A DNA stretch of 14,458 bases from Candidatus Bathyarchaeia archaeon. GTDB lineage: Archaea > Thermoproteota > Bathyarchaeia > Bathyarchaeales > Bathycorpusculaceae. Location: NCBI GenBank assembly GCA_050012755.1, contig JBEKGO010000046.1:1-14458 (forward strand), read 5' to 3'. Below the pieces are notes generated by a model that saw nothing but the letters and a program-made list of their open reading frames with translations, searched no databases and had not been told where the DNA came from. Shown one piece after another: positions 71 to 14,458 of this stretch. The first letter of the stretch is position 1. The number at the start of each line of letters is the position of its first letter. The position numbers and the translations under genes are program-made.

Positions 71-251
71 TTTCGCGCATTTCCACACAGAATTACACAT
101 ATAAACACATTTTAACACAATTAGACACATTTCAGCTCAAATCCACACAAATAAACACGCAACCTGCAAACGCACCAAACCCTAAACCAAGGAAGCAACT
201 CAAAACACAAACAACAAAACAGGGCACAAAAAACCGTCAATAACTAAGTTC
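71..251 (+). repeat. Non-coding dispersed element, copy A: nine in-register 10-bp units (71-160) plus conserved tail (165-251)
   Basis: Decamers from 71: tttcgcgcat ttccacacag aattacacat ataaacacat tttaacacaa ttagacacat ttcagctcaa atccacacaa ataaacacgc, with ACACA or a variant always at positions 5-9. The tail aligns to the reverse complement of 12459-12540; 225-246 matches 20/22. Confidence 0.8.
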
Positions 252-399
252 ACTATTCGATTTAAGAGGATTTCATAATCTTTTCAGCTAACTTTGAACA
301 ACTTGACATTTTCATCAAAGGACAAGGCTACGCTGAAGGGAAATAGAGAAATATCTCCGATGCGAAGATTAAAGATAGGTATTTTTGGAGGCTCTGGGA

Positions 400-831
400 A
401 TGGTGCTAAAACTATCCAAGAAGGATGTTGCGTTTATGCAGCAATTGCCCGTGTGCCGATTAGCTACCGCTACTGAAGATTGTGAGCCCATAGTGAGGCC
501 TGTTTGGCCCGTTTTCGACGGCTCAAACATTTACATTGCATCTGACCCTGACACGCCCAAGCTGGAGCAAATAGAAGCAAACCCACAGGTATCATTAGTC
601 TTTGATGATTATGACAAAAAAAACTGGTCAATCATCAAAGGAATACGTGTTCAAGGAGAAGCAACCATCATGTGGAACGGCCAAGAATACCGTTATGCCC
701 ATGACCTTCTTAAGGAAAAATACCCCGAATACCAAACTGAAGAAGGCGGCTGGAAAGAAGGCGACATTCCCATAATCAAGGTGACGCCAACATCCTATAC
801 AACATGGGCACAGGGCAAATGGAAAAAATAA
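400..831 (+). CDS. Pyridoxamine 5'-phosphate oxidase-like (PPOX/split beta-barrel) flavin- or F420-binding oxidoreductase
   Basis: Motifs CRLAT, PIVRPVW, K..QIEANPQVSLVFDDY, GIRVQGEA and LKEKYPEY. ATG 400 follows GGAGG (387-391) and is preferred over TTG 385. Confidence 0.85.
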   Translation: MVLKLSKKDVAFMQQLPVCRLATATEDCEPIVRPVWPVFDGSNIYIASDPDTPKLEQIEANPQVSLVFDDYDKKNWSIIKGIRVQGEATIMWNGQEYRYAHDLLKEKYPEYQTEEGGWKEGDIPIIKVTPTSYTTWAQGKWKK

Positions 832-875
832 CTGCATTTTCACTAAAAAGCTCCTTTTAAGTGCTTCTCTTCGCG

Positions 876-1127
876 TTATTTTTCTCCCTTGATTATTCCT
901 ATGGGACCAACCATAAACGGCAGCTTCAAAGTTCCAGGGATAAAGGGTGAGTTTCGCGTTTCCACGAATTTCACTTGGGTGATTCCCCAGCTTTTTATGG
1001 TTGCAACCAACGTTTCGGGTTCTCCATAGATTTGTTTGAGTAAGAAGAGGTCTTGGAACGCGAATTTTCCACCCTTCTTGACCACACGCAAAGCCTCACG
1101 GATAACCTCACGCTTGCTTTTTGCATT
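876..1127 (-). pseudogene. C-terminal remnant of a class I SAM-dependent methyltransferase
   Basis: Frame reads (stop 1130-1128) NAKSKREVIREALRVVKKGGKFAFQDLF...GEK*. EALRVxKxGG is the late methyltransferase motif; the N-terminal SAM-binding glycine motif is absent. Confidence 0.75.
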
Positions 1128-1163
1128 TTAAAGCTAAATTCTTCCCTGAATTTGTTCAATCAC

Positions 1164-1185
1164 AAAAAATCTTATATCTTAGATT
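1164..1185 (+). promoter_or_regulatory. BRE/TATA of the ferritin-like gene, overlapped by an imperfect palindrome
   Basis: AAAAAAT-CTTATAT (1171-1177) lies ~40 bp before ATG 1215; AATCTTA-tatc-TTAGATT spans 1168-1185. Confidence 0.5.
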
Positions 1186-1214
1186 GCTCTTCTTTGCATA
1201 GAAGTTGTGATTCT

Positions 1215-2195
1215 ATGGCAGTTAAAACAACCCCTGACTATGTGAATTTACTAAACAGAGCAGTTGAACGTGAAATTGGCGTTTCGCTGCAATATATTCT
1301 TCAACACGCAAAAATGGAAAAACTTGTACGCAGAACTATATCTGAAAACACCCTATTAGACAAAACAACCTACGACGCCGTTGGAAAATTCCTACGTGAA
1401 ATCGCCATCCAAGAAATGAAACATGCAGCAACTATTATGGAACGCATTTACTATCTGGGTGGGCAAGCATCAACTAAATCAAGCAAAGTTAACGTTGGCG
1501 ATAGCATAAGCGAATTTGCCAAACTGGGCGTAAAAGCTGAAGAAGAAGCCTTAACACTTTACCGCCAAATCATCGAAACAGCTGGAAAAATGGGTGATTG
1601 GGAAACACGTGAAGTCTTCGAGAAAATTTATGGTGAAGAAGAAGGACACTTGTTCAAATTCCAAGAATACACAAAATTCCAAGACGAGAAAGAAGAACCA
1701 AGCAAAGTGCCATTGCCAGAATGGAGAAAAATATACACCGACGATTACTTTACTCTCCTAAACAAAGCTGTATCGGCAGAAATCACCGGCATAATCCAAT
1801 ACACCCATCAACATGAAAAAGCGGCTTTTCTTGAACTCCGAATGAAGAGCATATCATTAGAAACGATCACTGAAACTAACAAGGCCGCTGTAGTAAGTAA
1901 GATTCTGAAAGAAGTTTTCATGCAGGAAATGGATCACCTAGAAAAAATCAGCGAACGCATTTATTTGCTTGAAGGCGAAGCCGCATACAAACCCGATCCG
2001 CTTCCAGTAGTAGGTGACACCGCACAGGACTTTTTGAGATTGGATCATGCATTAGAAAGTAGCGCAATATCACTTTACCGACAAATCATCGCTGAAGCAC
2101 TCAAACGCAGTGACACCACAACAAGACGCATGTTCGAAGACATTATACTTCAAGAAGAAGATCACTTCTGGACATTTGACGACTTCGTAAGATAA
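1215..2195 (+). CDS. Tandem two-domain bacterioferritin/ferritin-like diiron protein (326 aa)
   Basis: Two repeats of LLN.AV..E....QY..QH ... QEM(K/D)H...ERIY.L.G ... E..A..LYRQII ... D..TR..FE.I...EE.H. Start ATG 1215; the ORF-track extension from 1053 overlaps the promoter and the pseudogene. Confidence 0.9.
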   Translation: MAVKTTPDYVNLLNRAVEREIGVSLQYILQHAKMEKLVRRTISENTLLDKTTYDAVGKFLREIAIQEMKHAATIMERIYYLGGQASTKSSKVNVGDSISEFAKLGVKAEEEALTLYRQIIETAGKMGDWETREVFEKIYGEEEGHLFKFQEYTKFQDEKEEPSKVPLPEWRKIYTDDYFTLLNKAVSAEITGIIQYTHQHEKAAFLELRMKSISLETITETNKAAVVSKILKEVFMQEMDHLEKISERIYLLEGEAAYKPDPLPVVGDTAQDFLRLDHALESSAISLYRQIIAEALKRSDTTTRRMFEDIILQEEDHFWTFDDFVR

Positions 2196-2205
2196 AATCA
2201 AACCA

Positions 2206-2221
2206 TCCTTTCTTTTTTGTT
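2206..2221 (+). terminator. Probable archaeal T-tract terminator
   Basis: tcctttcttttttgtt begins ~10 bp after the stop at 2195. Confidence 0.5.
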
Positions 2222-2299
2222 AAACCCTTTAGATTAGGAGTATTTCCGAAAACTTAATTCCGAACACCATACAACACTAGATATGGCAGAGGCGAAGAA

Positions 2300-2437
2300 A
2301 TGAGCAAAAAAGATTTGCCTCGTTGCATAAACTGTGGAAATTTCATAAACGATTGTAATTGCGTATGCCCATACTGCGGAGAAACGGCAAAATGCACTTG
2401 CTGTATAGGCGTAGATAAGGCAGCAGGCGGCGGCTAA
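2300..2437 (+). CDS. Cysteine-rich microprotein, 45 aa, C-terminal GGG (not in the ORF track)
   Basis: Hand translation: MSKKDLPRCINCGNFINDCNCVCPYCGETAKCTCCIGVDKAAGGG*. RBS-like GAGGCGA at 2289-2295; two CxxCG-x4/5-CxC units; fills the gap between two + strand genes. Confidence 0.85.
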   Translation: MSKKDLPRCINCGNFINDCNCVCPYCGETAKCTCCIGVDKAAGGG

Positions 2438-2475
2438 ACCGTCGCTCAACAAAAAATTATTTAACGTGAAGAAAA

Positions 2476-5356
<2,881 letters not shown>

Positions 5357-5364
5357 AAACATTT

Positions 5365-5415
5365 GCCTCAAAGAGAGGCGTAAGAAGCCTTCCTTTCTCC
5401 TTGTTCTCCTTCTCA
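5365..5415 (+). terminator. Short hairpin plus pyrimidine tract after the OFOR operon
   Basis: GCCTC-aaaga-GAGGC (5365-5379) followed by a C/T-rich run. Confidence 0.4.
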
Positions 5416-5448
5416 ATTCACAAAGAGTAAAAATAGACTTATTAAGCG

Positions 5449-5652
5449 CTATTGCAGTAATCGAAATATATCACAAAAAAAATTACCGCAGCTTTGTTTC
5501 AGTCTCTTCTCCATTACAGTAGTTGTAACTCCAGGTTTAACTCTAGCTCTTGCAATTGAAACTAGTTCATCGCTGTAATTCTCGACTACAAAGCAGCGTT
5601 CAGAAGTTGAATATTCTTTTAAGGACTTATCTTTTGCAATTTTTGCCTTCAT
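5449..5652 (-). pseudogene. Truncated cupin-domain protein
   Basis: MKAKI...EYSTSERCFVVEN...VSIARARVKPGVTT resembles the N-terminus of small cupins. Similarity stops (~5518) just before the metal-binding His/Glu motif. Confidence 0.65.
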
Positions 5653-5879
5653 ACCAACGCCCGTAATCAATCCTTTCGTGTTTATCAAGATAAAGGTAAC
5701 TGACTATATGCCATGTCTTAATTATTTTTCTTGCGCAAGACTTAACCAAACCATTATCTGTGAGAAAAGGAGTTTTTTTGCGGAAAAAGGACTGATTCTT
5801 ACTTTTTTATTTTGCATTTTTTGTTTATTTTTTATGGAACAATCTTTATCGTAATAGGTAATATTTCCAGTTTAATGTT

Positions 5880-5895
5880 AAAATACCTTATATAT
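5880..5895 (+). promoter_or_regulatory. Archaeal BRE-TATA promoter of nrdR-nrdD-nrdG
   Basis: AAAATAC-CTTATATAT about 75 bp upstream of the nrdR ATG. Confidence 0.65.
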
Positions 5896-5911
5896 GCGCT
5901 AACTGTAGTGT
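5896..5911. promoter_or_regulatory. NrdR box 1
   Basis: GCGCTAACTGTAGTGT; its reverse complement ACACTACAGTTAGCGC fits the consensus acaCwAtATaTwGtgt. Confidence 0.7.
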
Positions 5912-5927
5912 GTAGGTTAGGTCGTTA

Positions 5928-5943
5928 ACACTACATATATAAC
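5928..5943. promoter_or_regulatory. NrdR box 2
   Basis: ACACTACATATATAAC matches 11 of the first 12 consensus positions and starts 32 bp after box 1. Confidence 0.7.
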
Positions 5944-5965
5944 AAAGCATGAGTATGTTAAATCT

Positions 5966-6412
5966 ATGAGATGTCCCTACTGTAATTCGGAAAACTCCAA
6001 AACATTGGAAACACGTGATTCTCCAGAGAACACTACGCGTAGACGTAGAGAATGCATTAACTGCGGAAAACGTTACACAACCTACGAATATCTGGAAACA
6101 GTAGAGCTTATGGTCCGAAAAAAGGATGGCGAGCTTGAACGCTTCGACGTTAACAAGATAATACGTGGCTTACAGAAAGCATGCGAGAAAAGACCTGTAA
6201 CCATGAGCCAAATCAACGAGTTAGCAGGTAAAGTAAGGCAGGATCTAATGCTTAAAGATACTGAAGAAGTTACGTCCCAAGAAATAGGGGATTTAATTAT
6301 GAAGTATCTGAAAAATTTGGATCGCATTGCCTACATTCGTTTTGCTTCGGTTTACAAACAGTTTGAAGAGCCTGAAGATTTCAGGCGGCTACTCCTTGAG
6401 GTGAAAAAATGA
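5966..6412 (+). CDS. nrdR: Transcriptional repressor NrdR
   Basis: MRCPYC...RRRRECINCGKRYTTYE zinc ribbon, ATP cone (VRKKDG..E.FD..K) and AYIRFASVY. Confidence 0.97.
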   Translation: MRCPYCNSENSKTLETRDSPENTTRRRRECINCGKRYTTYEYLETVELMVRKKDGELERFDVNKIIRGLQKACEKRPVTMSQINELAGKVRQDLMLKDTEEVTSQEIGDLIMKYLKNLDRIAYIRFASVYKQFEEPEDFRRLLLEVKK

Positions 6413-8535
6413 AGTTTGTCTTAAAACGTGATAGTAAATTAGAACCATTCGATCAAGAACGCATAACAAACGCCATTTGGAAAGCTGCAAAAGCAGTAGG
6501 TGGAACAAACAAAGAACAAGCCAAACGCTTAAGCGACGAAGTTGTTGTTGATCTACAAAAAAAATACGGCGATGATGGAGTACCTACTGTTGAGGAAATT
6601 CAAGATGTCGTTGAAAAACGCTTGATTGAAAATGGACACGCGCAGACTGCTAAAGCCTACATTCTTTATAGAAAACAGCACACTGATATGCGTGAATTAG
6701 CTGCCTTACTAAGTTCCTCAGACATGGTTGATCAATACCTTGAAGTTGAGGATTGGCGCGTAAAAGAAAACAGCAACATGAGCTATTCCCTTCAAGGATT
6801 GAACAATTATTTATCCTCAACAGTAATAGCAAAGTATTGGATATCAAGAATCTATCCTCAAAATATTGCTGACGCCCACTTTTCAGGTGATCTTCACATC
6901 CATGACCTGGGAGTTTTAGGTGCTTACTGCGTCGGCTGGGACATAAGTGAACTATTACTCGCAGGTTTCGGAGGCGTTTCAGGCAAAATAGAGAGCAAAC
7001 CAGCTAAACACTTCCGAACAGCTTTAGGCCAAGTCGTAAACTTCTTTTATACATTACAAGGTGAAGCAGCAGGAGCGCAAGCGTTCAGCAACTTTGACAC
7101 TTACCTTGCCCCATTCATCCGATATGACCACCTTACTCAGCAAGAAATACAGCAAGCACTTCAAGAATTCTTCTTCAACATGAACGTACCGACCCGTGTA
7201 GGTTTCCAGACACCATTCACAAACTTAACTCTGGACTTAACTGTGCCAGATTTCATGAAAAACGAAGCAGTTCTCTACAATGGAAAAGTAACTTCAGACA
7301 CATACGGCGACATGACCAAAGAAATGGAAATGTTCAATTTAGCGTTCGCAGAGGTCATGCGACAAGGTGACTCAAAAGGCAGAGTTTTCACATTCCCAAT
7401 TCCAACATACAACATCACTAAAGATTTCGATTGGGATTCACCTGTATCACAAGCCATTTTTGAAGTCACTGCCAAGTACGGTGTACCTTATTTCTCAAAC
7501 TTCGTTAACAGCGACATGAAACCTGAAGATGTACGCAGCATGTGCTGCCGCTTAAGAATAGACAATCGTGAGCTACGCAAGCGAGGCGGCGGATTCTTCG
7601 GCGCCAACCCATTAACAGGCAGCATAGGCGTTGTAACATTAAACATTCCACGCATTGGCTACTTATCTAAAGATGAAGACGAATTCTTTGAGCGATTAGA
7701 AACACTAATGGAAACTGCAAAGTCTAGTTTGGAGATAAAACGTAAAGTGCTTGAAGCCTTCACAGATAACGGTTTATACCCGTATTCACGACGTTACCTA
7801 CGACATGTAAAAGAGGGGTACGGCAAATACTGGAAGAACCACTTCTCCACAATAGGCATCGTGGGTGTAAACGAAGCAATCATAAACCTGCTGGGACAAA
7901 ACATAGCATCTCGCGACGGACAAGCCTTCGCAGTTAAAATTTTGAATTTCATGCGAAATCGTCTAGCAGACTACCAAGAAGAAACAGGCAGCATATACAA
8001 CCTTGAAGCAACACCCGCCGAAGGAACCTCTTATCGACTTGCACGCATAGACAGAAAACGCTACAAAGACATAATATTCGCTAACCAAAAACAAGTTGCA
8101 ACTGAACACGCAGAGCCATTCTACACCAACTCATCCCAGCTGCCAGTAGACTTCAACGGTGACCTATTTGAAGCCTTGGAGCACCAGGAAACAATGCAAA
8201 CACTATACACTGGAGGAACAGTTTTCCATATTTTCTTAGGGGAACGATTGAACTCTTGGAAAGCAGCTGCCGAACTAATCAAAAAAGTATCATGGAACTC
8301 AAAGTTACCTTACTTCACCCTGACACCAACATTTAGCATTTGCCCAACCCATGGCTACACAACTGGTGAACACAAAATTTGTTCCGTCTGCGGAGCAAAC
8401 TGCGAAGTTTACTCAAGAGTGGTGGGCTACTTAAGACCAGTTGACCAATGGAACGATGGAAAACAAGCGGAATTTGCCATACGCAAAACCTTTGACCGAT
8501 CGACAATCGTCACTGCATTACCCATAGCAACTTGA
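6409..8535 (+). CDS. nrdD: Anaerobic (class III) ribonucleoside-triphosphate reductase with ATP cone
   Basis: N-terminal ATP cone, HIHDL, SMCCRL finger loop, TPAEG, CPTH...CSVC and glycyl-radical motif YSRVVGYLRP. ATGA overlap with nrdR and GAGGTGA RBS. Confidence 0.97.
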   Translation: MKFVLKRDSKLEPFDQERITNAIWKAAKAVGGTNKEQAKRLSDEVVVDLQKKYGDDGVPTVEEIQDVVEKRLIENGHAQTAKAYILYRKQHTDMRELAALLSSSDMVDQYLEVEDWRVKENSNMSYSLQGLNNYLSSTVIAKYWISRIYPQNIADAHFSGDLHIHDLGVLGAYCVGWDISELLLAGFGGVSGKIESKPAKHFRTALGQVVNFFYTLQGEAAGAQAFSNFDTYLAPFIRYDHLTQQEIQQALQEFFFNMNVPTRVGFQTPFTNLTLDLTVPDFMKNEAVLYNGKVTSDTYGDMTKEMEMFNLAFAEVMRQGDSKGRVFTFPIPTYNITKDFDWDSPVSQAIFEVTAKYGVPYFSNFVNSDMKPEDVRSMCCRLRIDNRELRKRGGGFFGANPLTGSIGVVTLNIPRIGYLSKDEDEFFERLETLMETAKSSLEIKRKVLEAFTDNGLYPYSRRYLRHVKEGYGKYWKNHFSTIGIVGVNEAIINLLGQNIASRDGQAFAVKILNFMRNRLADYQEETGSIYNLEATPAEGTSYRLARIDRKRYKDIIFANQKQVATEHAEPFYTNSSQLPVDFNGDLFEALEHQETMQTLYTGGTVFHIFLGERLNSWKAAAELIKKVSWNSKLPYFTLTPTFSICPTHGYTTGEHKICSVCGANCEVYSRVVGYLRPVDQWNDGKQAEFAIRKTFDRSTIVTALPIAT

Positions 8536-8550
8536 GAGGAAAAATCTAAC

Positions 8551-9228
8551 ATGAAGTTTAGTGGATTACAAAAAACAAGCTTACTTGACTACCCCGATAA
8601 AGTAGCCAGCGTCTTATTCACGCCTGGCTGCAACCTACACTGCCCCTTCTGCCACAACTGGCGCATAGCTGTAAACCCGCAACCGCCGTTTCTGCAGGAA
8701 GCCGTTGCCCTAGAAATTTTGGAGAGCCGCAAAAAATACGTTGATGCAGTAGTCATCACGGGCGGCGAGCCTTGCATACATAAGGAACTGCCCAAATTTC
8801 TAGCTAAACTTAAGGAACGAGGCTTCATGGTTAAACTGGACACAAACGGCTTTTTCCCAGAAGTTCTTGAGGAATGCTTGGGCAGCGTTGATTACGTGGC
8901 TATGGATGTGAAAACCTGTAGAGAAAAATACAATCTGCTGGGAGCGCAAGATACGGTTGGACTCATGCAGACTATCGAAATTTTAAAGACAGGCAAGGTG
9001 CCTTACGAATTTAGGACTACAGTAGTGCCACAAATAGTTACAGCACAAGACGCCACATGCATCGGCGAAATGGTGAAAGGCTCAAAAATTCATGCGTTAC
9101 AACAGTACATTCCAGAAGATACGTTAGACAAGAAATTTCAAACCCTCAAGCCTTATACACCAGAGATTTTCAGCGAATTTGCACAAATAATAAACAAGTA
9201 TACCGAAAAAGTTCTTGTAAGAGTCTAA
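8551..9228 (+). CDS. nrdG: Class III RNR activating radical SAM enzyme
   Basis: GCNLHCPFCHN, TGGEP, KLDTNG and YEFRTT motifs; adjacent to nrdD. Confidence 0.95.
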   Translation: MKFSGLQKTSLLDYPDKVASVLFTPGCNLHCPFCHNWRIAVNPQPPFLQEAVALEILESRKKYVDAVVITGGEPCIHKELPKFLAKLKERGFMVKLDTNGFFPEVLEECLGSVDYVAMDVKTCREKYNLLGAQDTVGLMQTIEILKTGKVPYEFRTTVVPQIVTAQDATCIGEMVKGSKIHALQQYIPEDTLDKKFQTLKPYTPEIFSEFAQIINKYTEKVLVRV

Positions 9229-9325
9229 TTTTCCTTATTCTGTTCAATTGCCCGAAGTTGTTAAACTGAAGGTTCGGAGAATTTTCTTTAACCACCCAAA
9301 AAGAAGTAATTGAAAAAAGTGCTAA

Positions 9326-12300
9326 CTAGTGGATATTTAGGAATATTTTTTTGCCATCTAATTCGGATTCATGCCATTCGGCATCGTGTTCTTCACTGCT
9401 GCTGCTATGCAAATACACTTTTCTGGTTCTCACCAGTCCAGCCATCTCATCTAAATATGGCTCCAAAAGCGTCATGCTTTCTGCGTCTAACTCTGCAATA
9501 TGAACGGATTCTAAAACATCGGTGGGTGTGAAACCCATTTCCTTGCGGAGGGCTTGCACGCGGCGTGCTAAATCGCGCATAATGCCTTCGCCCAGCAATC
9601 TGTCGTCACGCTGCCCGCTTACGAATACAGTTATTTCATCTTCTTGACTGGAAACCCAGTTTTCGCCTCCAACATGGTCAGGAAAACTTGTGGCATATTC
9701 AACTGCTTTCACGTTTACTTGTTCTAAAAACAGTGTTTCAAGACATTTTATGGCATACACTGTCTTTTGTGGGGCAACTACGATTGCTTTGCCTAGAGGC
9801 CATCGGCGCTTCAATTTCCCTGTTTGTCTTGCTGCATACGCTATTGAAACTGTCTTAAGCAGAATTTCAAATTGTTCTTCAAGAAGTTTGTTGCGGATTT
9901 TCTTTTCGGGGGTTGGCCAAGAGGCAAGGTTGACTGATTCTGGAAGTTCAGGTTGAAGTTGTCTGTAAATTTTCTGGTAAAGTGCCTCGCTGAGGTAAGG
10001 TGTGACTGGGTTGAAGAGCAACGTCACCGTCTTTAATGTATGATGTAAAAGCGCATAGATTGTTTGGCGTCTTTCAAAGGTTTCAGGCTCATCAGTCCAA
10101 AGCTCCTTTCGAATCATAGGCACGTATAGCCTGCTTAATGTCTCAATTACGAAATCATCTAAAACGGCTACTGCAATGTTAAATTCGCATCGCTCCAGTT
10201 TTTGGGTGTAGTCTTCGATCATTCCTTGCAATTTAGAGAGAAGCCAGAAGTCAGCGGCTTGAAGCTTATTTGTCCTTAAAGCCCAATCCAAAGTGTACTT
10301 TTTAGCGTCAAACTCGTCAAAAGTGGCGTTTTGCATAAAAAACCTGCTCAAATGATAAAGTGTTGACAGTACTTGGTATGGGCGACGAGTGAGTTCTTGC
10401 ATATCAAAATTCATGAAGTCAATCGGCGAGCATTTGCGCATCATGTAGAAGCGACAGAGGTCGGCTGAATTTTTTTCCAGTAACTTGTTGGTTTCAACTA
10501 CGTTTCCGAGGCTTTTGCTCATTTTTCTGCCTTTTGCATCCTGTGTTAATCCTTGAAACAGAAATGCCTTGTAGGGTGCCTCTGGTTTGCCAGTTAAAAT
10601 AGCGTGTTCCAACAGCAGCGAGTTTGCCCAGCCTCTGGTTTGGTCGATTCCTTCAGTTAAGAAAGCTGTTGGAACAAACTTCTCAACTTCCTTGTCAGTA
10701 AATCGTGCATAGGGCGAGGCGCCGCTGTTATGCCAAGTATCCAAAACGAAATCTTCTCGATGCATGGATCCGTCGCATTTGTCGCATTTGAAAGTTATTC
10801 GGTCAACCCATGGCTTATGCAACTCAAAGTTTTCAGGAATTGTTTCCTGAGCATTTTCAAGAAGTTCTTTTTTGCTTCCGACTATGCGTTTGTTGCCGCA
10901 TTTTTCGCATGCCCAAATCGGGAGCGGTGTACCCCAGATGCGTTCTCTGCTTATGCACCATGGTTTCCCTTCTTTAAGAAAGGCAAGAAAACGGTTTTTT
11001 GGTTCTTCGAAGAAGTACTCAACTTTTTCGGCTGCGTCCAAAACTCTGCTGTTTAATTTGTCAGTGCGCAAGAAGTATTCTTTTCTTGCTAGCCAGACGA
11101 GTTTGTGGTGAGAACGCCAGCATGTTGGATATTCATGCTTGATTTTTGTTACTTTGACGAAGGCATTGTTGTTGCGCAGTTCCTCGACAACCAGCATATC
11201 TGCTTCTCGAGCAAAAACGCCGACAAATATTCCAGCGTCCTTAGTGAATTTAACTTCGTCATCGTAAGGAGCAAAGATGGGAACGCCTCTGCGTTGAGCT
11301 GCCCAAAAATCGTCTTCGCCATTTCCAGGCGAAAGATGTACCACACCAGTGGCAGTTTCAACATCAACAAAGTCTTCGCCGACGACCTTATGCACCAAAG
11401 GATGCTTGGTTTCAAGTTCAGCCTGTTTAGGAATCAAATCCTTTAACGGATAATCGTATGCTATTCCCTCGAGGGTTTTGCCCAGCACAGTTTCGGTAAC
11501 TTGATACTTGAATATGTCAAGTTCCTGCATAATAGGTTCGACTCGCTGTTTCATCATAATCCATATTTCATCGCCGACTTTCACTTTCACATATTCGGCG
11601 TCTGGCTTAACTGCGAGCATAGTGTCTGTTATTATGGTGAAAGGCATGGTTGTCCAAACGAGGAAAAACTCATTTTTGCTGCCTGAAACTTTTAATTTGA
11701 AATAGACTGAGGGGTCTTCGACCTCTTTGTAGCTGCCTTCATAGCCAACTTCAGCGCTGCTTAGACTGGTTTGACATCCTGGACAATAGGCGACAACGTA
11801 GTGCCCTTCTTCAAGCAGTCCTTGATCCCATGCCCGTTTTAGAATTTGCCATTCACGCTCAATATAACTGTCCTTGTAGGTCCAGTAAGCTTTTTCTTGA
11901 TTAATAAAAACGCCCAAGTTTCCGTCGGCTTCTAGCCACATTTGATGATACCGTAGGATGGCTTTTTTGCATTCTTCAATGAAGCGTTCCATTCCATATT
12001 TCTCGATGGATTCACGCTTGTTGCGTACGCCTAGAAGTTTCTCAACTTCCAACTCTACAGGTAAGCCTTGGCAGTCCCATCCTGCCCAAAATGGCATGTA
12101 GTAACCTTCCATGGTTTTCCATCGGTAACGAATATCTTTCATGATTCTGCCGCGGGCGTGACCGATGTGTGGGATGCCGTTTAATGTGGGTGGGCCTTCA
12201 ACGTAACCTAAGCAGCCTTTAGCGTTTTTTTCCAAAAGCTCAAGTTTTTCTCTAATCTGGTTTTTAACCCAGAATTCCCGCATTTCCTTCTCTAATGTAA

Positions 12301-12358
12301 GCGGTGCGTAATTAGTTGGTAAACCTATGTTTGAGCCAGCTTCTTCGGTGGCAGTCAT
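9326..12358 (-). CDS. ileS: Isoleucine--tRNA ligase (archaeal/eukaryote-like type 2)
   Basis: GPPTLNG.PHIGH, GWDCQGLPVE, WTTMP, TGVVH, WCISRER.WGTP, EGIDQTRGW and KMSKS motifs. Confidence 0.97.
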   Translation of the reverse strand: MTATEEAGSNIGLPTNYAPLTLEKEMREFWVKNQIREKLELLEKNAKGCLGYVEGPPTLNGIPHIGHARGRIMKDIRYRWKTMEGYYMPFWAGWDCQGLPVELEVEKLLGVRNKRESIEKYGMERFIEECKKAILRYHQMWLEADGNLGVFINQEKAYWTYKDSYIEREWQILKRAWDQGLLEEGHYVVAYCPGCQTSLSSAEVGYEGSYKEVEDPSVYFKLKVSGSKNEFFLVWTTMPFTIITDTMLAVKPDAEYVKVKVGDEIWIMMKQRVEPIMQELDIFKYQVTETVLGKTLEGIAYDYPLKDLIPKQAELETKHPLVHKVVGEDFVDVETATGVVHLSPGNGEDDFWAAQRRGVPIFAPYDDEVKFTKDAGIFVGVFAREADMLVVEELRNNNAFVKVTKIKHEYPTCWRSHHKLVWLARKEYFLRTDKLNSRVLDAAEKVEYFFEEPKNRFLAFLKEGKPWCISRERIWGTPLPIWACEKCGNKRIVGSKKELLENAQETIPENFELHKPWVDRITFKCDKCDGSMHREDFVLDTWHNSGASPYARFTDKEVEKFVPTAFLTEGIDQTRGWANSLLLEHAILTGKPEAPYKAFLFQGLTQDAKGRKMSKSLGNVVETNKLLEKNSADLCRFYMMRKCSPIDFMNFDMQELTRRPYQVLSTLYHLSRFFMQNATFDEFDAKKYTLDWALRTNKLQAADFWLLSKLQGMIEDYTQKLERCEFNIAVAVLDDFVIETLSRLYVPMIRKELWTDEPETFERRQTIYALLHHTLKTVTLLFNPVTPYLSEALYQKIYRQLQPELPESVNLASWPTPEKKIRNKLLEEQFEILLKTVSIAYAARQTGKLKRRWPLGKAIVVAPQKTVYAIKCLETLFLEQVNVKAVEYATSFPDHVGGENWVSSQEDEITVFVSGQRDDRLLGEGIMRDLARRVQALRKEMGFTPTDVLESVHIAELDAESMTLLEPYLDEMAGLVRTRKVYLHSSSSEEHDAEWHESELDGKKIFLNIH

Positions 12359-12391
12359 TTTTCATTCCCTTCCGCAAAATAGGATAAAAGA

Positions 12392-12402
12392 CTATATAAA
12401 AG
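12392..12402 (-). promoter_or_regulatory. TATA box of ileS
   Basis: Minus strand CTTTTATATAG ~35-40 bp before the ATG at 12358; purine-rich GGAAGGGAA at 12373-12365. Confidence 0.6.
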
Positions 12403-12458
12403 TAATATCAACCCAAACTTGACTTTGCAACAACAGAAAATTCATTTGTTTCTCTGCA

Positions 12459-12590
12459 GAACTAGTTATGGACGGTTTCTTGTGAGCTTTTTCTTTGTGT
12501 TTCAGGTTGCATTTTTAATTTGGGGCTCAAATCTATTGCAATCATAATCTTAAAACATCCCAAAACATCTAGAAACATCCCAAAAAATCG
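12459..12590 (-). repeat. Non-coding dispersed element, copy B: ~4 in-register 10-bp units plus conserved tail
   Basis: Minus-strand decamers 12584-12545: tttgggatgt ttctagatgt tttgggatgt tttaagatta. The tail 12540-12459 is homologous to 165-251. Confidence 0.8.
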
Positions 12591-12594
12591 CTCG

Positions 12595-12646
12595 ACAAGT
12601 TAAAGCAATAAAATATCGACTTAACTTATATCTGAAAACAAGTTAA
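12595..12646 (+). promoter_or_regulatory. GT4 promoter with repeated AAGTTAA sites
   Basis: TATA-like CTTATAT at ~12625-12631; TTAACTT (12621-12627) is inverted to AAGTTAA (12640-12646); ACAAGTTAA occurs at 12595 and 12638. Confidence 0.45.
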
Positions 12647-12679
12647 CATAAGGTATTCAAAACAGAAGAAGTGGAATTA

Positions 12680-13870
12680 ATGGACAAGTTTCGATTAGCA
12701 ATTTTCAACACTCAACCGCCTCACCTTTATTTCGGAGGAGTCGAAAGACGCATAATCGAAACAACAAAGAGATTACAAAACCGGGTGGACATAACCATCT
12801 ATAGCGGAACCAAAGCAGGTTTCAAAGAACCTACCACAGTTGACGGCGTGAAGTTGGTTCCGTGTTACTCGACAGATAGGATTTTTCCTTTAGATAACTG
12901 GTTTTTTAATAGAAGCATCGCCAAAAAAACCGGTTCCTTTAACGCTGATGTTTATGAGGCCCATGCAGTAAGCGGGTACGGACTACTAAGGGAGCTAAAT
13001 AAAAAAGGCATCAAAAAGCCGTTTATACATACGATTCATGGCGTTCTCGCTGACGAGTATGATCAGGCGAAGAAAAATGAGTATCAATCTTTCAGAGGCA
13101 GAATTGCGAATTATTTCATGGGCGGACTAGCCAATCTGGAATCGGAAACGTCTCAAAATGCCACATTGATTGTGACAATAAGCAACTATTCACTTGAGAA
13201 AATTAAGCAATTTTACAAAGTTGATGTGACCAAAGTGCGAATTGTTCCAAACGGGGTTGACGGTGAAAAATTCCAGCCCTTTGCGAATAAGGCGGCAGCT
13301 AGGCGGCAGTTTGGGTTGGGGGATGAGCCATGTGTGCTTTTTGTAGGCAGTTTGATTCCTAGAAAAGGGTTACATTTTCTGGTTGAAGCAGCCAAAAAAA
13401 TTGTTAAAGAAAAAAGTGATACAAAATTTTTAATTGTTGGGGAAGGGCCCATGAAGAATCAATTGGTTAATTCGCTTGAAGCGGCGAAGCTTGCGGGCAA
13501 TTTCAAGTTTTTGGGCAATCTCAAAGATGATAAGCTCCCAGCAGTGTATAATTGTGCAGACGTTTTCGCGTTGCCATCAATCCAAGAGGGGCAAGGTATA
13601 GTGTTGCTTGAAGCACAAGCCTGCGCTAAGCCGATTGTAGCGTTCAATATTGGGGGAGTGAATGAAGCAGTCAAAAACGAGGAAACGGCTTTGCTTGTTA
13701 AGTTGGGCAACACTGATGAGTTTGCCGATGCATTGTTGAAGCTTATCTCAGACAAGGCTTTGCAGGAAAAAATGGGTGCGTTTGGACGCAGGTTTGTTTT
13801 GGAAAACTTCACGTGGGATATTTGCGCTCAAAAAATGCTCAATGTTTATTATGAAGCGTTAGGAAGATGA
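12680..13870 (+). CDS. Glycosyltransferase family 4 (GT-B fold)
   Basis: GGVER, HTIHG, VPNGVD, FVGSL..RKG and LPS..EGQGIVLLEAQAC (EX7E) motifs. Start is ATG 12680 or GTG 12671. Confidence 0.93.
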   Translation: MDKFRLAIFNTQPPHLYFGGVERRIIETTKRLQNRVDITIYSGTKAGFKEPTTVDGVKLVPCYSTDRIFPLDNWFFNRSIAKKTGSFNADVYEAHAVSGYGLLRELNKKGIKKPFIHTIHGVLADEYDQAKKNEYQSFRGRIANYFMGGLANLESETSQNATLIVTISNYSLEKIKQFYKVDVTKVRIVPNGVDGEKFQPFANKAAARRQFGLGDEPCVLFVGSLIPRKGLHFLVEAAKKIVKEKSDTKFLIVGEGPMKNQLVNSLEAAKLAGNFKFLGNLKDDKLPAVYNCADVFALPSIQEGQGIVLLEAQACAKPIVAFNIGGVNEAVKNEETALLVKLGNTDEFADALLKLISDKALQEKMGAFGRRFVLENFTWDICAQKMLNVYYEALGR

Positions 13871-14386
13871 GACGTTAACTGATTTCGCCAGTTTTTTGAA
13901 GTCGTCCTCGCTCATCCACTCAGTCCGAAGGTAGCATCTGATTCTTTCATCATTAAGACCTAAACGCCTTGCTTCTTGAATACAATAACGGTAAGCTTCA
14001 ATCTCGGTCGGTCGCTCCACATAGCTATATCTTGGGTCAAAGAGTTCTTTTCCCTCCATAAACTGCTTAACATGGCAAAGCTCATGAATTAGGTCTAAGT
14101 AAATGTCTGTTTTGTCACCATTGTTGAGATAGTTCTTGCTTATTACAAGGTGCCCGTCAGATCCATCCACGTACATGTAGCCGAAAACCCAGCTAAGCTC
14201 AACTGTAAGATGATGGAGGACTTCATCTGTTTTTTCGCCGAAAATGCCTTTTACCGCTTCAACTTTTTCGAAATCCTTGAAGAAATCTGCAAAAATCACT
14301 TTTTGATTTCCAACCCCCAGTACATTGAACGGTAATTTTCTGAGCAAACGCAGTATCCTAAATCCTATATATTCTATTGCTGACAA
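13859..14386 (-). CDS. Hypothetical protein with HEXXH zinc-metallopeptidase-like motif
   Basis: LIHELCHVKQ followed by PTEIEAY. Start codon uncertain; 12-bp convergent overlap with the GT4 gene. Confidence 0.7.
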   Translation of the reverse strand: MSAIEYIGFRILRLLRKLPFNVLGVGNQKVIFADFFKDFEKVEAVKGIFGEKTDEVLHHLTVELSWVFGYMYVDGSDGHLVISKNYLNNGDKTDIYLDLIHELCHVKQFMEGKELFDPRYSYVERPTEIEAYRYCIQEARRLGLNDERIRCYLRTEWMSEDDFKKLAKSVNVSSS

Positions 14387-14458
14387 TGCGGGTGAGCGCT
14401 CCTGCTACTAAAGTGTGAAAGATATTCAAGTTTCATTCCTCGATGCGCCAAATCTGGA

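Follow-up and report, generated by a model that had tools for sequence, protein, structure and literature searches.

Dispersed modules of 10-bp arrays and a conserved core in a Bathyarchaeia genome, and a linked gene for a small protein that models as AbrB/MraZ-like

The window analysed here, a 14,458-nt stretch of DNA that makes up an entire contig (C46) in the genome of a Candidatus Bathyarchaeia archaeon, carries two copies, A and B, of an intergenic element in which a row of 10-bp direct repeats (the array) runs into a conserved core of about 70 nt and, in a number of copies, a short tail. Both copies belong to a family of array-and-core modules with 129 recognised cores in this genome, and the new observation is that a family of small proteins is encoded divergently beside a minority of the modules. 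On balance we lean towards the view that A and B derive, as orphan copies, from the control region of a regulator resembling MraZ and PhS018, that the 10-bp arrays are predicted docking rows for that protein and that the modules multiplied through duplication and recombination in some species of one genus of Bathyarchaeia.

The initial annotation of the window, made from the letters of the DNA, had aligned 165-251 (+) with 12540-12459 (-), and reading both strands reproduced this alignment together with the 21/35 identities in the opening 35 nt, the middle and end blocks as they had been quoted and the 4-nt gap between the copies. Comparison with shuffled sequence had been proposed as the means of judging the match: the local alignment score of A against B is 28, well above the maximum of 18 among 2000 mononucleotide shuffles of B (mean 10.0, sd 1.75, z = 10.3), and the match is the top non-self window among 1438 windows tested within the stretch. 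Arrays of period 10 were found 5' of both copies by Tandem Repeats Finder (TRF), at 95-158 (6.4 copies) and 12552-12589 (3.8 copies), and the nine and about four units counted earlier correspond to eight units plus a degenerate one in A and to four in B. Core A starts at 157 (ACGCAACCTGCA), 8 nt upstream of position 165 where the alignment had been begun, and a third copy, whose core lies 155 bp upstream of A, is cut by the start of the contig. The features of the three copies are as follows.

2-49, + strand: core of the third module, cut at the contig start (profile match 2-42, model positions 28-68)
50-68, + strand: diverged tail variant of the cut module (ACCTTATAATAATCGCCCC), read directly; the variant recurs in other copies
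67-76, + strand: degenerate ninth unit of array A, phased on the core start
77-156, + strand: array A, eight units ACAnnTnnAC ("ACACA" class) in phase with the core start (reading and TRF)
157-228, + strand: core A, A/C-rich and variable in its centre, GCAACCT standing at core positions 3-9 and 39-45 (49.8 bits, E = 4e-15)
229-251, + strand: tail A (AAAACCGTCAATAACTAAGTTC), an optional 3' part (reading and tail survey of copies)
12459-12476, - strand: tail B (ACCGTCCATAACTAGTTC) (reading and tail survey)
12477-12548, - strand: core B, first 8 nt class-specific (ATTATGAT), model positions 9-64 matching (41.9 bits, E = 1.2e-12)
12549-12590, - strand: array B, four units GGATGTTTTn ("GATGTTT" class) (reading and TRF)

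Iterated nhmmer searches started from A recovered 25, then 127 and finally 129 copies of the core in the 2.41-Mb genome (65 contigs, 41.6% G+C), distributed over 34 of the 65 contigs, so that the idea of a dispersed module made of an array and a conserved part, for which further copies were to be sought, holds for the genome at large. The cores form 75 clusters (40 single, 23 double, 7 triple, three of four and two of five), within which the core-to-core distance is mostly 141-195 bp. The modules avoid real genes, i.e. they are intergenic: 64 of the 75 clusters are free of overlap with crude open reading frame (ORF) calls of at least 90 aa, and the remaining 11 overlap only ORFs made by the repeat itself. 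A core is found no more than 330 bp away from 10 of the 130 contig ends, and contigs C46, C55, C60 and C61 all end in the same 120 nt; as copies at contig ends break the assembly, the true copy number is probably above 129. In pairs of copies with high identity the similarity begins and ends inside the cores, near positions 27, 41, 62 and 85, which points to a mosaic formed by recombination with no cut-and-paste unit. The modules are densest in a variable island (17 in 16 kb, G000 C33:9000-27878, locus L011) of small accessory genes including three PIN-domain genes, MazF-like, MazE-like and CcdA-like genes, and PadR-family and winged-helix regulators. Contigs in the assembled DNA runs X1-X3 stop at repeats, and an odd joint there (12589/12488) reads as another copy of the same class and is uninformative.

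The array is regular in its period and variable in its word. Upstream of the 127 cores with full flanks, self-identity at lag 10 averages 0.57 and at other lags 0.26-0.32, lag 20 excepted; in 4702 intergenic control windows the lag-10 mean is 0.27 with a 99th percentile of 0.414, a value exceeded by 115 of the 127 modules. A period of exactly 10 fits best in 118 of these 127 modules and in 140 of 154 from other Bathyarchaeia, so the periodicity first noted beside A and B recurs at the other copies; modules without a best period of 10 have very short arrays or none, and in none was there a solid array of another period. The repeated word varies by module, with at least 13 classes here (among them GAGACGC, GTGACGT, GACTTTT, TTTGCTT, CTTACAT, ACACA in copy A, GTCAAA, GATGTTT in copy B and GACCTTT) and many more in other genomes. 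Units are nevertheless phased on the core start, with C at position 2 in 87% and AC at positions 1-2 in 58%, and by a strict neighbour criterion array length ranges from 0 to 10 units (median 5).

The core is A/C-rich, and its first ten bases (ACGCAACCTG) continue the array. Two GCAACCT boxes, at positions 3-9 and 39-45 and thus 36 nt apart, are its most conserved parts; positions 33-62 are highly conserved as a whole and the centre, at 14-31, is variable and the least conserved. When set against the imperfect palindrome of integron attC sites (R''-L''...L'-R'), the centre is quasi-palindromic in some copies, e.g. ATTTAAGCTTAAAT. A tail resembling CCGTCAATAAC follows the core in 36 of the 127 copies.

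In an all-versus-all comparison of the crude proteins, looking for families within 500 bp of modules, one family was enriched, with 4/4 members near modules (91-109 aa, p = 1.2e-5), and it was the only multi-copy family found to be so, transposase families not having been searched by name. A profile of those four proteins finds eight copies in the genome, four of them cut by contig ends. Six copies can be assessed, being on the same contig as a module; in every one of them a module lies 17-96 bp from the start of the gene, in divergent orientation and with the array between gene and core. Genus-wide, 18 of the 26 protein copies in the fetched loci have a divergent core within 260 bp and an array between; of the six inspected among the eight loci without a core match, four show a diverged core start (GGTTGCGT, gene strand) with two to three units. 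In a clade whose arrays have xCGC units a CGCTTAAGTATA sequence resembling the transcription factor B recognition element and TATA box (BRE/TATA) stands between array and start codon, so that the array immediately precedes the promoter of the gene itself. In genome G214, which belongs to a different family within the class, the gene for a member of the protein family is preceded by an array of nine 10-bp AGACAGAAAT units that lacks a core, and this ties the protein to the array rather than to the core. In another genome (G012 C1:7626-10976) three such genes stand in tandem with a spacing of about 1539 bp, one with a TAG stop and two 99% identical.

Protein and core also tend to occur in the same genomes. 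By protein profile the family is present in 28 of 47 genus genomes, the window's own included. Among the 46 other genus genomes searched with both queries, 27 have both, three have the core only (G007, G011 and G023), none has the protein only and 16 have neither. Across the class the protein is sporadic (20 of 301 genomes). A search for gene remnants beside the orphan modules gave matches at 7 of 129 flanks, all of them the gene-linked copies already known, and no conserved partner gene adjoining the AbrB-like gene was found beyond local synteny in three to four loci.

The protein, of 92-99 aa, models as a single-chain swapped-hairpin barrel of the AbrB/MraZ kind. Its AlphaFold (AF2) model (pLDDT 89.4, pTM 0.80) consists of two beta-beta-alpha-beta halves, and the top Foldseek match is PhS018 of Pyrococcus horikoshii (2GLW; E 7.6e-5, TM 0.70/0.75), followed at ranks 2-9 by MraZ structures (probability 0.96-0.99, TM 0.41-0.46); a 19-sequence profile searched against PDB sequences likewise matches 2GLW only (E 0.017). 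A homodimer prediction (score 0.00, mark 0.42) counts neither way. For four proteins searched against Pfam at E <=1 there was no relevant match, the sole one listed being the unrelated Arcadin_1 (E 0.039, below the cut-off), and one of the four has a match below the cut-off to the AbrB looped-hinge-helix model of NCBIfam (TIGR01439, E 0.034). Public protein data hold at least 552 clusters of homologues at E <=0.001, and none of the best 120 has a precomputed Pfam domain; source names given to homologues are "hypothetical protein", three PrlF-type antitoxins or regulators, one MraZ and one cupin-family protein, the last taken as spurious.

Within the protein tree, an eight-gene clade (support 100/99) that is probably one syntenic locus pairs with xCGC or xCGG arrays. 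Here a loop formed by the four residues before a conserved VQ(I/V)PK strand varies with the array unit: three genes with xFxK loops (SFNK, RFSK and SFNK) go with TCGC-type units, and five with xxxT or xxxA loops (KTNT, SKNT, IKKT, KNHT and SANA) go with ACGC, ACGG or GCGC units. In the closest pair of the clade (84% identical) loop and word both differ. The covariation of loop and word is suggestive of recognition.

In the mechanism that we propose, protein subunits would occupy one repeat unit after another along a single face of the helix, in the manner of MraZ on its 10-bp-spaced boxes. A strict 10-bp period maintained over dozens of unrelated words, together with a C in fixed phase, is what binding to one face predicts and what slippage alone does not. 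The full unit would comprise the regulator gene, the operator array and a core with a BRE/TATA-like centre. As to the core, it may represent an old promoter region belonging to the regulator gene, serve as a second site of protein binding, or combine the two. The gene-less modules, about ten-fold commoner, may then represent this control region multiplied through duplication and through recombination between cores, and would act as additional docking platforms, either as a dispersed regulon or as selfish decoys. A stronger and more tentative version, which we would put forward as a possibility only, is that regulator and operator array spread as a unit, seeding some ten times as many gene-less arrays, while words and recognition loop co-diverge fast into many specificities.

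Several observations weigh against this reading. Genus genomes are not independent of each other, and the co-occurrence table therefore overstates its support. There are about eight protein genes for 129 modules; A and B are themselves both orphans, and about 120 orphan modules lack the position upstream of the regulator. None of the commonest word classes (among them GACTTTT, CTTACAT, GTGACGT and ACACA) has a gene-linked copy in this assembly, which goes against a scheme with one paralogue for each word, at least in its plain form. The modules show no preferred orientation relative to genes, a poor fit to a gene-specific regulatory role: 21 clusters lie between divergent genes, 14 are tandem and co-oriented, 15 tandem and anti-oriented, 14 convergent and 11 at contig edges, which is close to the genome-wide mix of long intergenic regions (438 tandem, 285 divergent, 156 convergent). 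On the protein side, no Pfam model matches and the AbrB domain of NCBIfam is reached only at the E value given above, the TM values to MraZ are modest and MraZ's oligomerising helices are missing. The array moreover abuts the 5' end of the gene, and linkage or joint recombination would give the same pairing of loop and word.

B lies about 60 bp upstream of the promoter of the isoleucyl-tRNA synthetase gene (IleRS); this promoter (TTTATATA) and its leader are kept in 24 other species of the genus, in none of which (0/24) the module is present. As the module stands at IleRS only in the window's species, B is a lineage-specific insertion beside a housekeeping promoter and not an ancestral control element. 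The IleRS promoter (TTTATATA) with its leader of about 35 nt to the start codon (...TATTTTGCGGTACGGGAATGAA..., window 12359-12400 (-)) is itself near-invariant in the 25 species, sequence farther upstream differs and the start codon varies between ATG, GTG and TTG (loci L013-L036); a regulatory role as a conserved 5' untranslated region (UTR) is possible for the leader. At one of these loci (L034, genome G016) three repeats of about 30 nt (GTAATCCAGCAAAACAAGGRTTGAAAC) with unique spacers between them, within about 420 nt upstream of IleRS, look like the end of a CRISPR array.

Outside the genome, a pattern derived from the core matched at least 112 stretches in a species-representative genome collection, in 104 of which nhmmer confirms cores; among the 80 matches listed, 73 are labelled Candidatus Bathyarchaeota or Bathyarchaeia and come from bog, peat and soil, and the sequencing runs that contain the window are peat and wetland metagenomes. 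A sequence-only core model (R1) finds the core in 42 of 63 genus genomes, the window's own included, and the number of matches in a single genome ranges from 0 to at least 79; modules are absent from the remaining 21 of the 63 searched. When the order's other families were searched by plain DNA comparison, none of 16 genomes gave a core (0/16). The element is lineage-restricted, occurring in some species among the Bathyarchaeia of peat and soil. One 10-kb contig in a record titled Candidatus Acidoferrum sp. (L050) also carries a genuine module (ACTTTTTTTG array and ACTCAACCTGCA core); this contig probably comes from Bathyarchaeia and was assigned in binning to a bacterial metagenome-assembled genome.

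The initial annotation had offered three roles for the element, and the best supported of them is that of a protein-loading site, with an MraZ/PhS018-like gene adjoining a subset of modules and co-occurring with them across genomes; a structured non-coding RNA and a classical non-autonomous transposon fared badly. Against an RNA family stand an Rfam search of the whole window on both strands without a match at E <=1 and the absence of any fold signal in the 43 of the 129 modules (every third) compared with dinucleotide shuffles, where mean z is about 0 on both strands (core sense +0.17, core antisense +0.31; whole module +0.65 and +0.36). No CRISPR, tRNA or Rfam identity was found, and the initial annotation, too, had failed to match the element to CRISPR or tRNA. 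Against a CRISPR array speak units that are 10 bp long and contiguous and cores 141-195 bp apart that are separated by arrays and not by unique spacers. A miniature inverted-repeat transposable element (MITE), or another non-autonomous DNA transposon, is not supported: terminal inverted repeats and target duplications were not found, nor was a transposase link in the survey of enriched families, which did not search transposases by name, and the boundaries vary and fall inside cores; in the 5' flanks of the 75 cluster-initial modules there is no shared terminal motif or general inverted repeat. The palindromic hairpin unit (~35 bp) of repetitive extragenic palindromes (REP) and bacterial interspersed mosaic elements (BIME) was also rejected, the core being A/C-rich and free of fold signal.

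What remains to be weighed are accounts in which the arrays, or the protein, play a different part. The family could be a purely selfish repeat like MITE, REP or BOX elements, its arrays neutral slippage minisatellites and the AbrB-like gene a mere neighbour, or cargo that uses the module as its upstream region. Copy numbers that run from none to at least 79 between species of one genus are what such a repeat would give, as are a species-specific insertion at IleRS, mosaic copies of which near-identical ones break the assembly, unbiased orientation toward genes and stop codons in many copies of the protein gene. We still consider it unlikely, as dozens of diverged word classes keep a unit length of 10 and a phased C, neither of which neutral slippage predicts, and as the protein occurs without the core in 0 of 46 genomes; nor were the terminal inverted repeats, target duplications or nearby-enriched transposase of such elements found, transposases not having been searched by name. 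Rather unlikely, too, is a portable transcription unit, in which a weak BRE/TATA in the core centre would give a short sense RNA or ORF, or an antisense transcript of the array, with the array as operator. Scored with a BRE/TATA matrix built from the genome's own upstream regions (consensus GAAAAGCTTAAATACT, 437 sites), the centre exceeds 6 bits in antisense in 19/126 copies (background 0.15% per position) and 4 bits in sense in 19/126 (background 0.36%). An ATG at core positions 56-95 is present in 40 of the 129 modules, in about half of them at 60-65, and these ATGs lie some 35-40 nt past the TATA-like centre, which is the genome-wide distance from promoter to start; a gene-linked copy with a short array (C2:16172) has an antisense TATA at a plausible distance from the start of the protein gene. 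Yet about 70% of cores have no scoring TATA, conservation within the core is lowest at this centre, the ORFs from these ATGs are not kept open even within a class, and neither a fold signal nor an orientation bias toward genes is seen. The cover of the one RNA run found (X22; Nanopore contigs, share of words 0.07) excludes 1-1928 and 9159-14458, where the elements lie.

Improbable in our judgement is a chromatin or nucleoid role, in which 10-bp-phased bent or wrappable DNA of any word would position archaeal histones or another abundant chromatin protein. The strict period despite varying words, phased T-tracts in most classes, arrays with a median of 5 units (range 0-10) and the two histone-fold proteins encoded in the genome are in keeping with it, yet it leaves the conserved core and the specific link to the AbrB-like gene unexplained, modules are absent from 21 of 63 genus genomes (a comparison of modules alone, histone content aside) and the GAGACGC class has no A/T tracts. 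One histone-fold gene (G000 C4:13815-14000) lies about 2 kb from a five-module cluster (C4:10941-11662), probably by coincidence. That core and tail encode a small basic peptide (TQPA...KKQPKTQRTK...TVNN*), with the array in some classes as its hydrophobic N-terminal part, is very improbable. The consensus is open in frame 1, 23 of 37 tails keep that frame and many of these close it with TGA, TAA or TAG directly after AAC, and eight ORFs of at least 45 aa begin at an ATG of core positions 56-95, five of them (46-93 aa) crossing TTTGCTT or GTACTT arrays to give transmembrane-like peptides. However, 14 of the 37 tails are out of frame, that of copy A by one base; open frames are expected in so T-poor a core, which is open in two; most arrays have in-frame stops and ORF length is not conserved within a class; and the mean consensus fraction is 0.81, 0.84 and 0.80 at codon positions 1, 2 and 3. 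This lack of a three-base rhythm bears out the earlier view of the element as non-coding. The five ORFs of 46-93 aa (G000 C40:14234, C33:24432, C61:1236, C4:11089 and C38:22343) start near core positions 64-72, cross the T-rich array and end in the next core, with a hydrophobic segment followed by a basic tail, and given stops in other copies of the same classes they are probably by-products of base composition. Least credible of all is the suggestion that A and B are the ends of an invertible or mobile block of 12.2 kb, or a pair of partition sites. The inverted, inward-facing geometry was described correctly and is all that speaks for it; it has no special meaning with 129 copies in both orientations, a third copy 155 bp upstream of A, housekeeping genes inside and no counterpart of copy B at its locus in any of the 24 other species, and the claim that two of these 129 copies bracket a block as a unit is thereby contradicted.

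The genes between A and B encode PNPOx, a ferritin-like protein, a 2-oxoacid:ferredoxin oxidoreductase, NrdR, NrdD, NrdG and IleRS. NrdR is mainly bacterial; here an archaeon encodes an NrdR-type repressor (5966-6412 (+); zinc ribbon and ATP-cone) in a gene upstream of nrdD and nrdG. A 175-aa ORF at 13859-14386 (-) has no Pfam match and a HELCH motif resembling the HExxH of zinc metallopeptidases. The genome contains two TBP genes, an archaeal signal recognition particle RNA and two histone-fold genes; an McrA gene was not found in it.

Bathyarchaeia are abundant in peat and sediment and uncultured, and almost nothing is known of their gene regulation. A repeat family that occupies about 1% of a genome is here tied to a specific, unnamed family of small proteins, which gives both a testable function. 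If the predicted binding is real, the principle of one AbrB-like subunit per 10-bp box known from MraZ would extend to Archaea, and dozens of natural array words would be available for studying how this fold reads DNA. Should the self-propagating version also be true, the lineage builds, or is parasitised by, genome-wide platforms for protein loading; to our knowledge no described repeat family works as a self-propagating system of regulator and operator array. In practice the modules break assemblies and yield spurious ORF calls (11 of 75 clusters), which matters to binning tools and gene callers. Neither this repeat family nor any Bathyarchaeota repeat was found described in the literature, judged by titles and abstract openings.

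Among known repeats, the REP and BIME of enterobacteria resemble the modules in forming mosaic intergenic clusters of short repeats in both orientations, and in the pairing of a repeat family with a dedicated protein gene flanked by the repeats. They differ in that REP are hairpin-forming palindromes, whereas the modules have no palindrome and have units phased at 10 bp, and in the nature of the protein: the RAYT of REP/BIME is an HUH/Y1 transposase, and the protein here is a predicted small DNA binder without a catalytic fold. The BOX elements of Streptococcus pneumoniae have a boxB unit of about 45 nt, far longer than the 10-bp unit of the module. The modules do show the BOX type of layout, with a constant core, a variable tandem part and an optional tail, a likeness of layout only, with no sequence relation; the stem-loops of the BOX type are absent from them, folding energies being those of shuffled sequence. 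Like the modules described here, BOX elements are modular, combine constant parts with a tandem module of variable number, occur in many copies between genes, disturb assemblies and can create spurious ORFs (PMC3049150). RNA stem-loops are predicted for BOX, in contrast to a fold z of about 0 here, and the passages cited name no protein gene for BOX, unlike the linked gene of the modules; BIMEs appear there among the background repeats (PMC3049150).

The closest parallels are provided by the protein and its operator. PhS018, described as an uncharacterised pseudo-dimeric relative of the AbrB swapped-hairpin barrel (PMC4333400), is archaeal, of about 92 aa and built of two homologous halves, and it is both the best structural match and the sole PDB profile match, with 19% identity to the linked protein as the difference. 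For MraZ, which acts at the bacterial dcw promoter, the published account describes a single chain with two AbrB-like halves that binds four GTG(G/T) boxes with 6-nt spacers, i.e. a 10-bp period, upstream of its own operon, one subunit per box inserted in the major groove and binding cooperatively (PMC12957436). MraZ is bacterial, has about 140-150 aa and oligomerising helices, and acts at one locus per genome with about four boxes of one conserved word and no core, whereas the protein here has 92-99 aa and is accompanied by some 130 dispersed arrays of up to 10 units, with variable words and a core of about 70 nt. Direct repeats with a 10-bp period are common to both, and a position upstream of the cognate regulator gene is found in the gene-linked subset (6/6 here, 18/26 in the genus) and not in the orphans. 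What the two systems share, as known here from sequence and predicted structure and for MraZ from the account cited, is a gene for a double-AbrB fold with 10-bp direct repeats just upstream of it.

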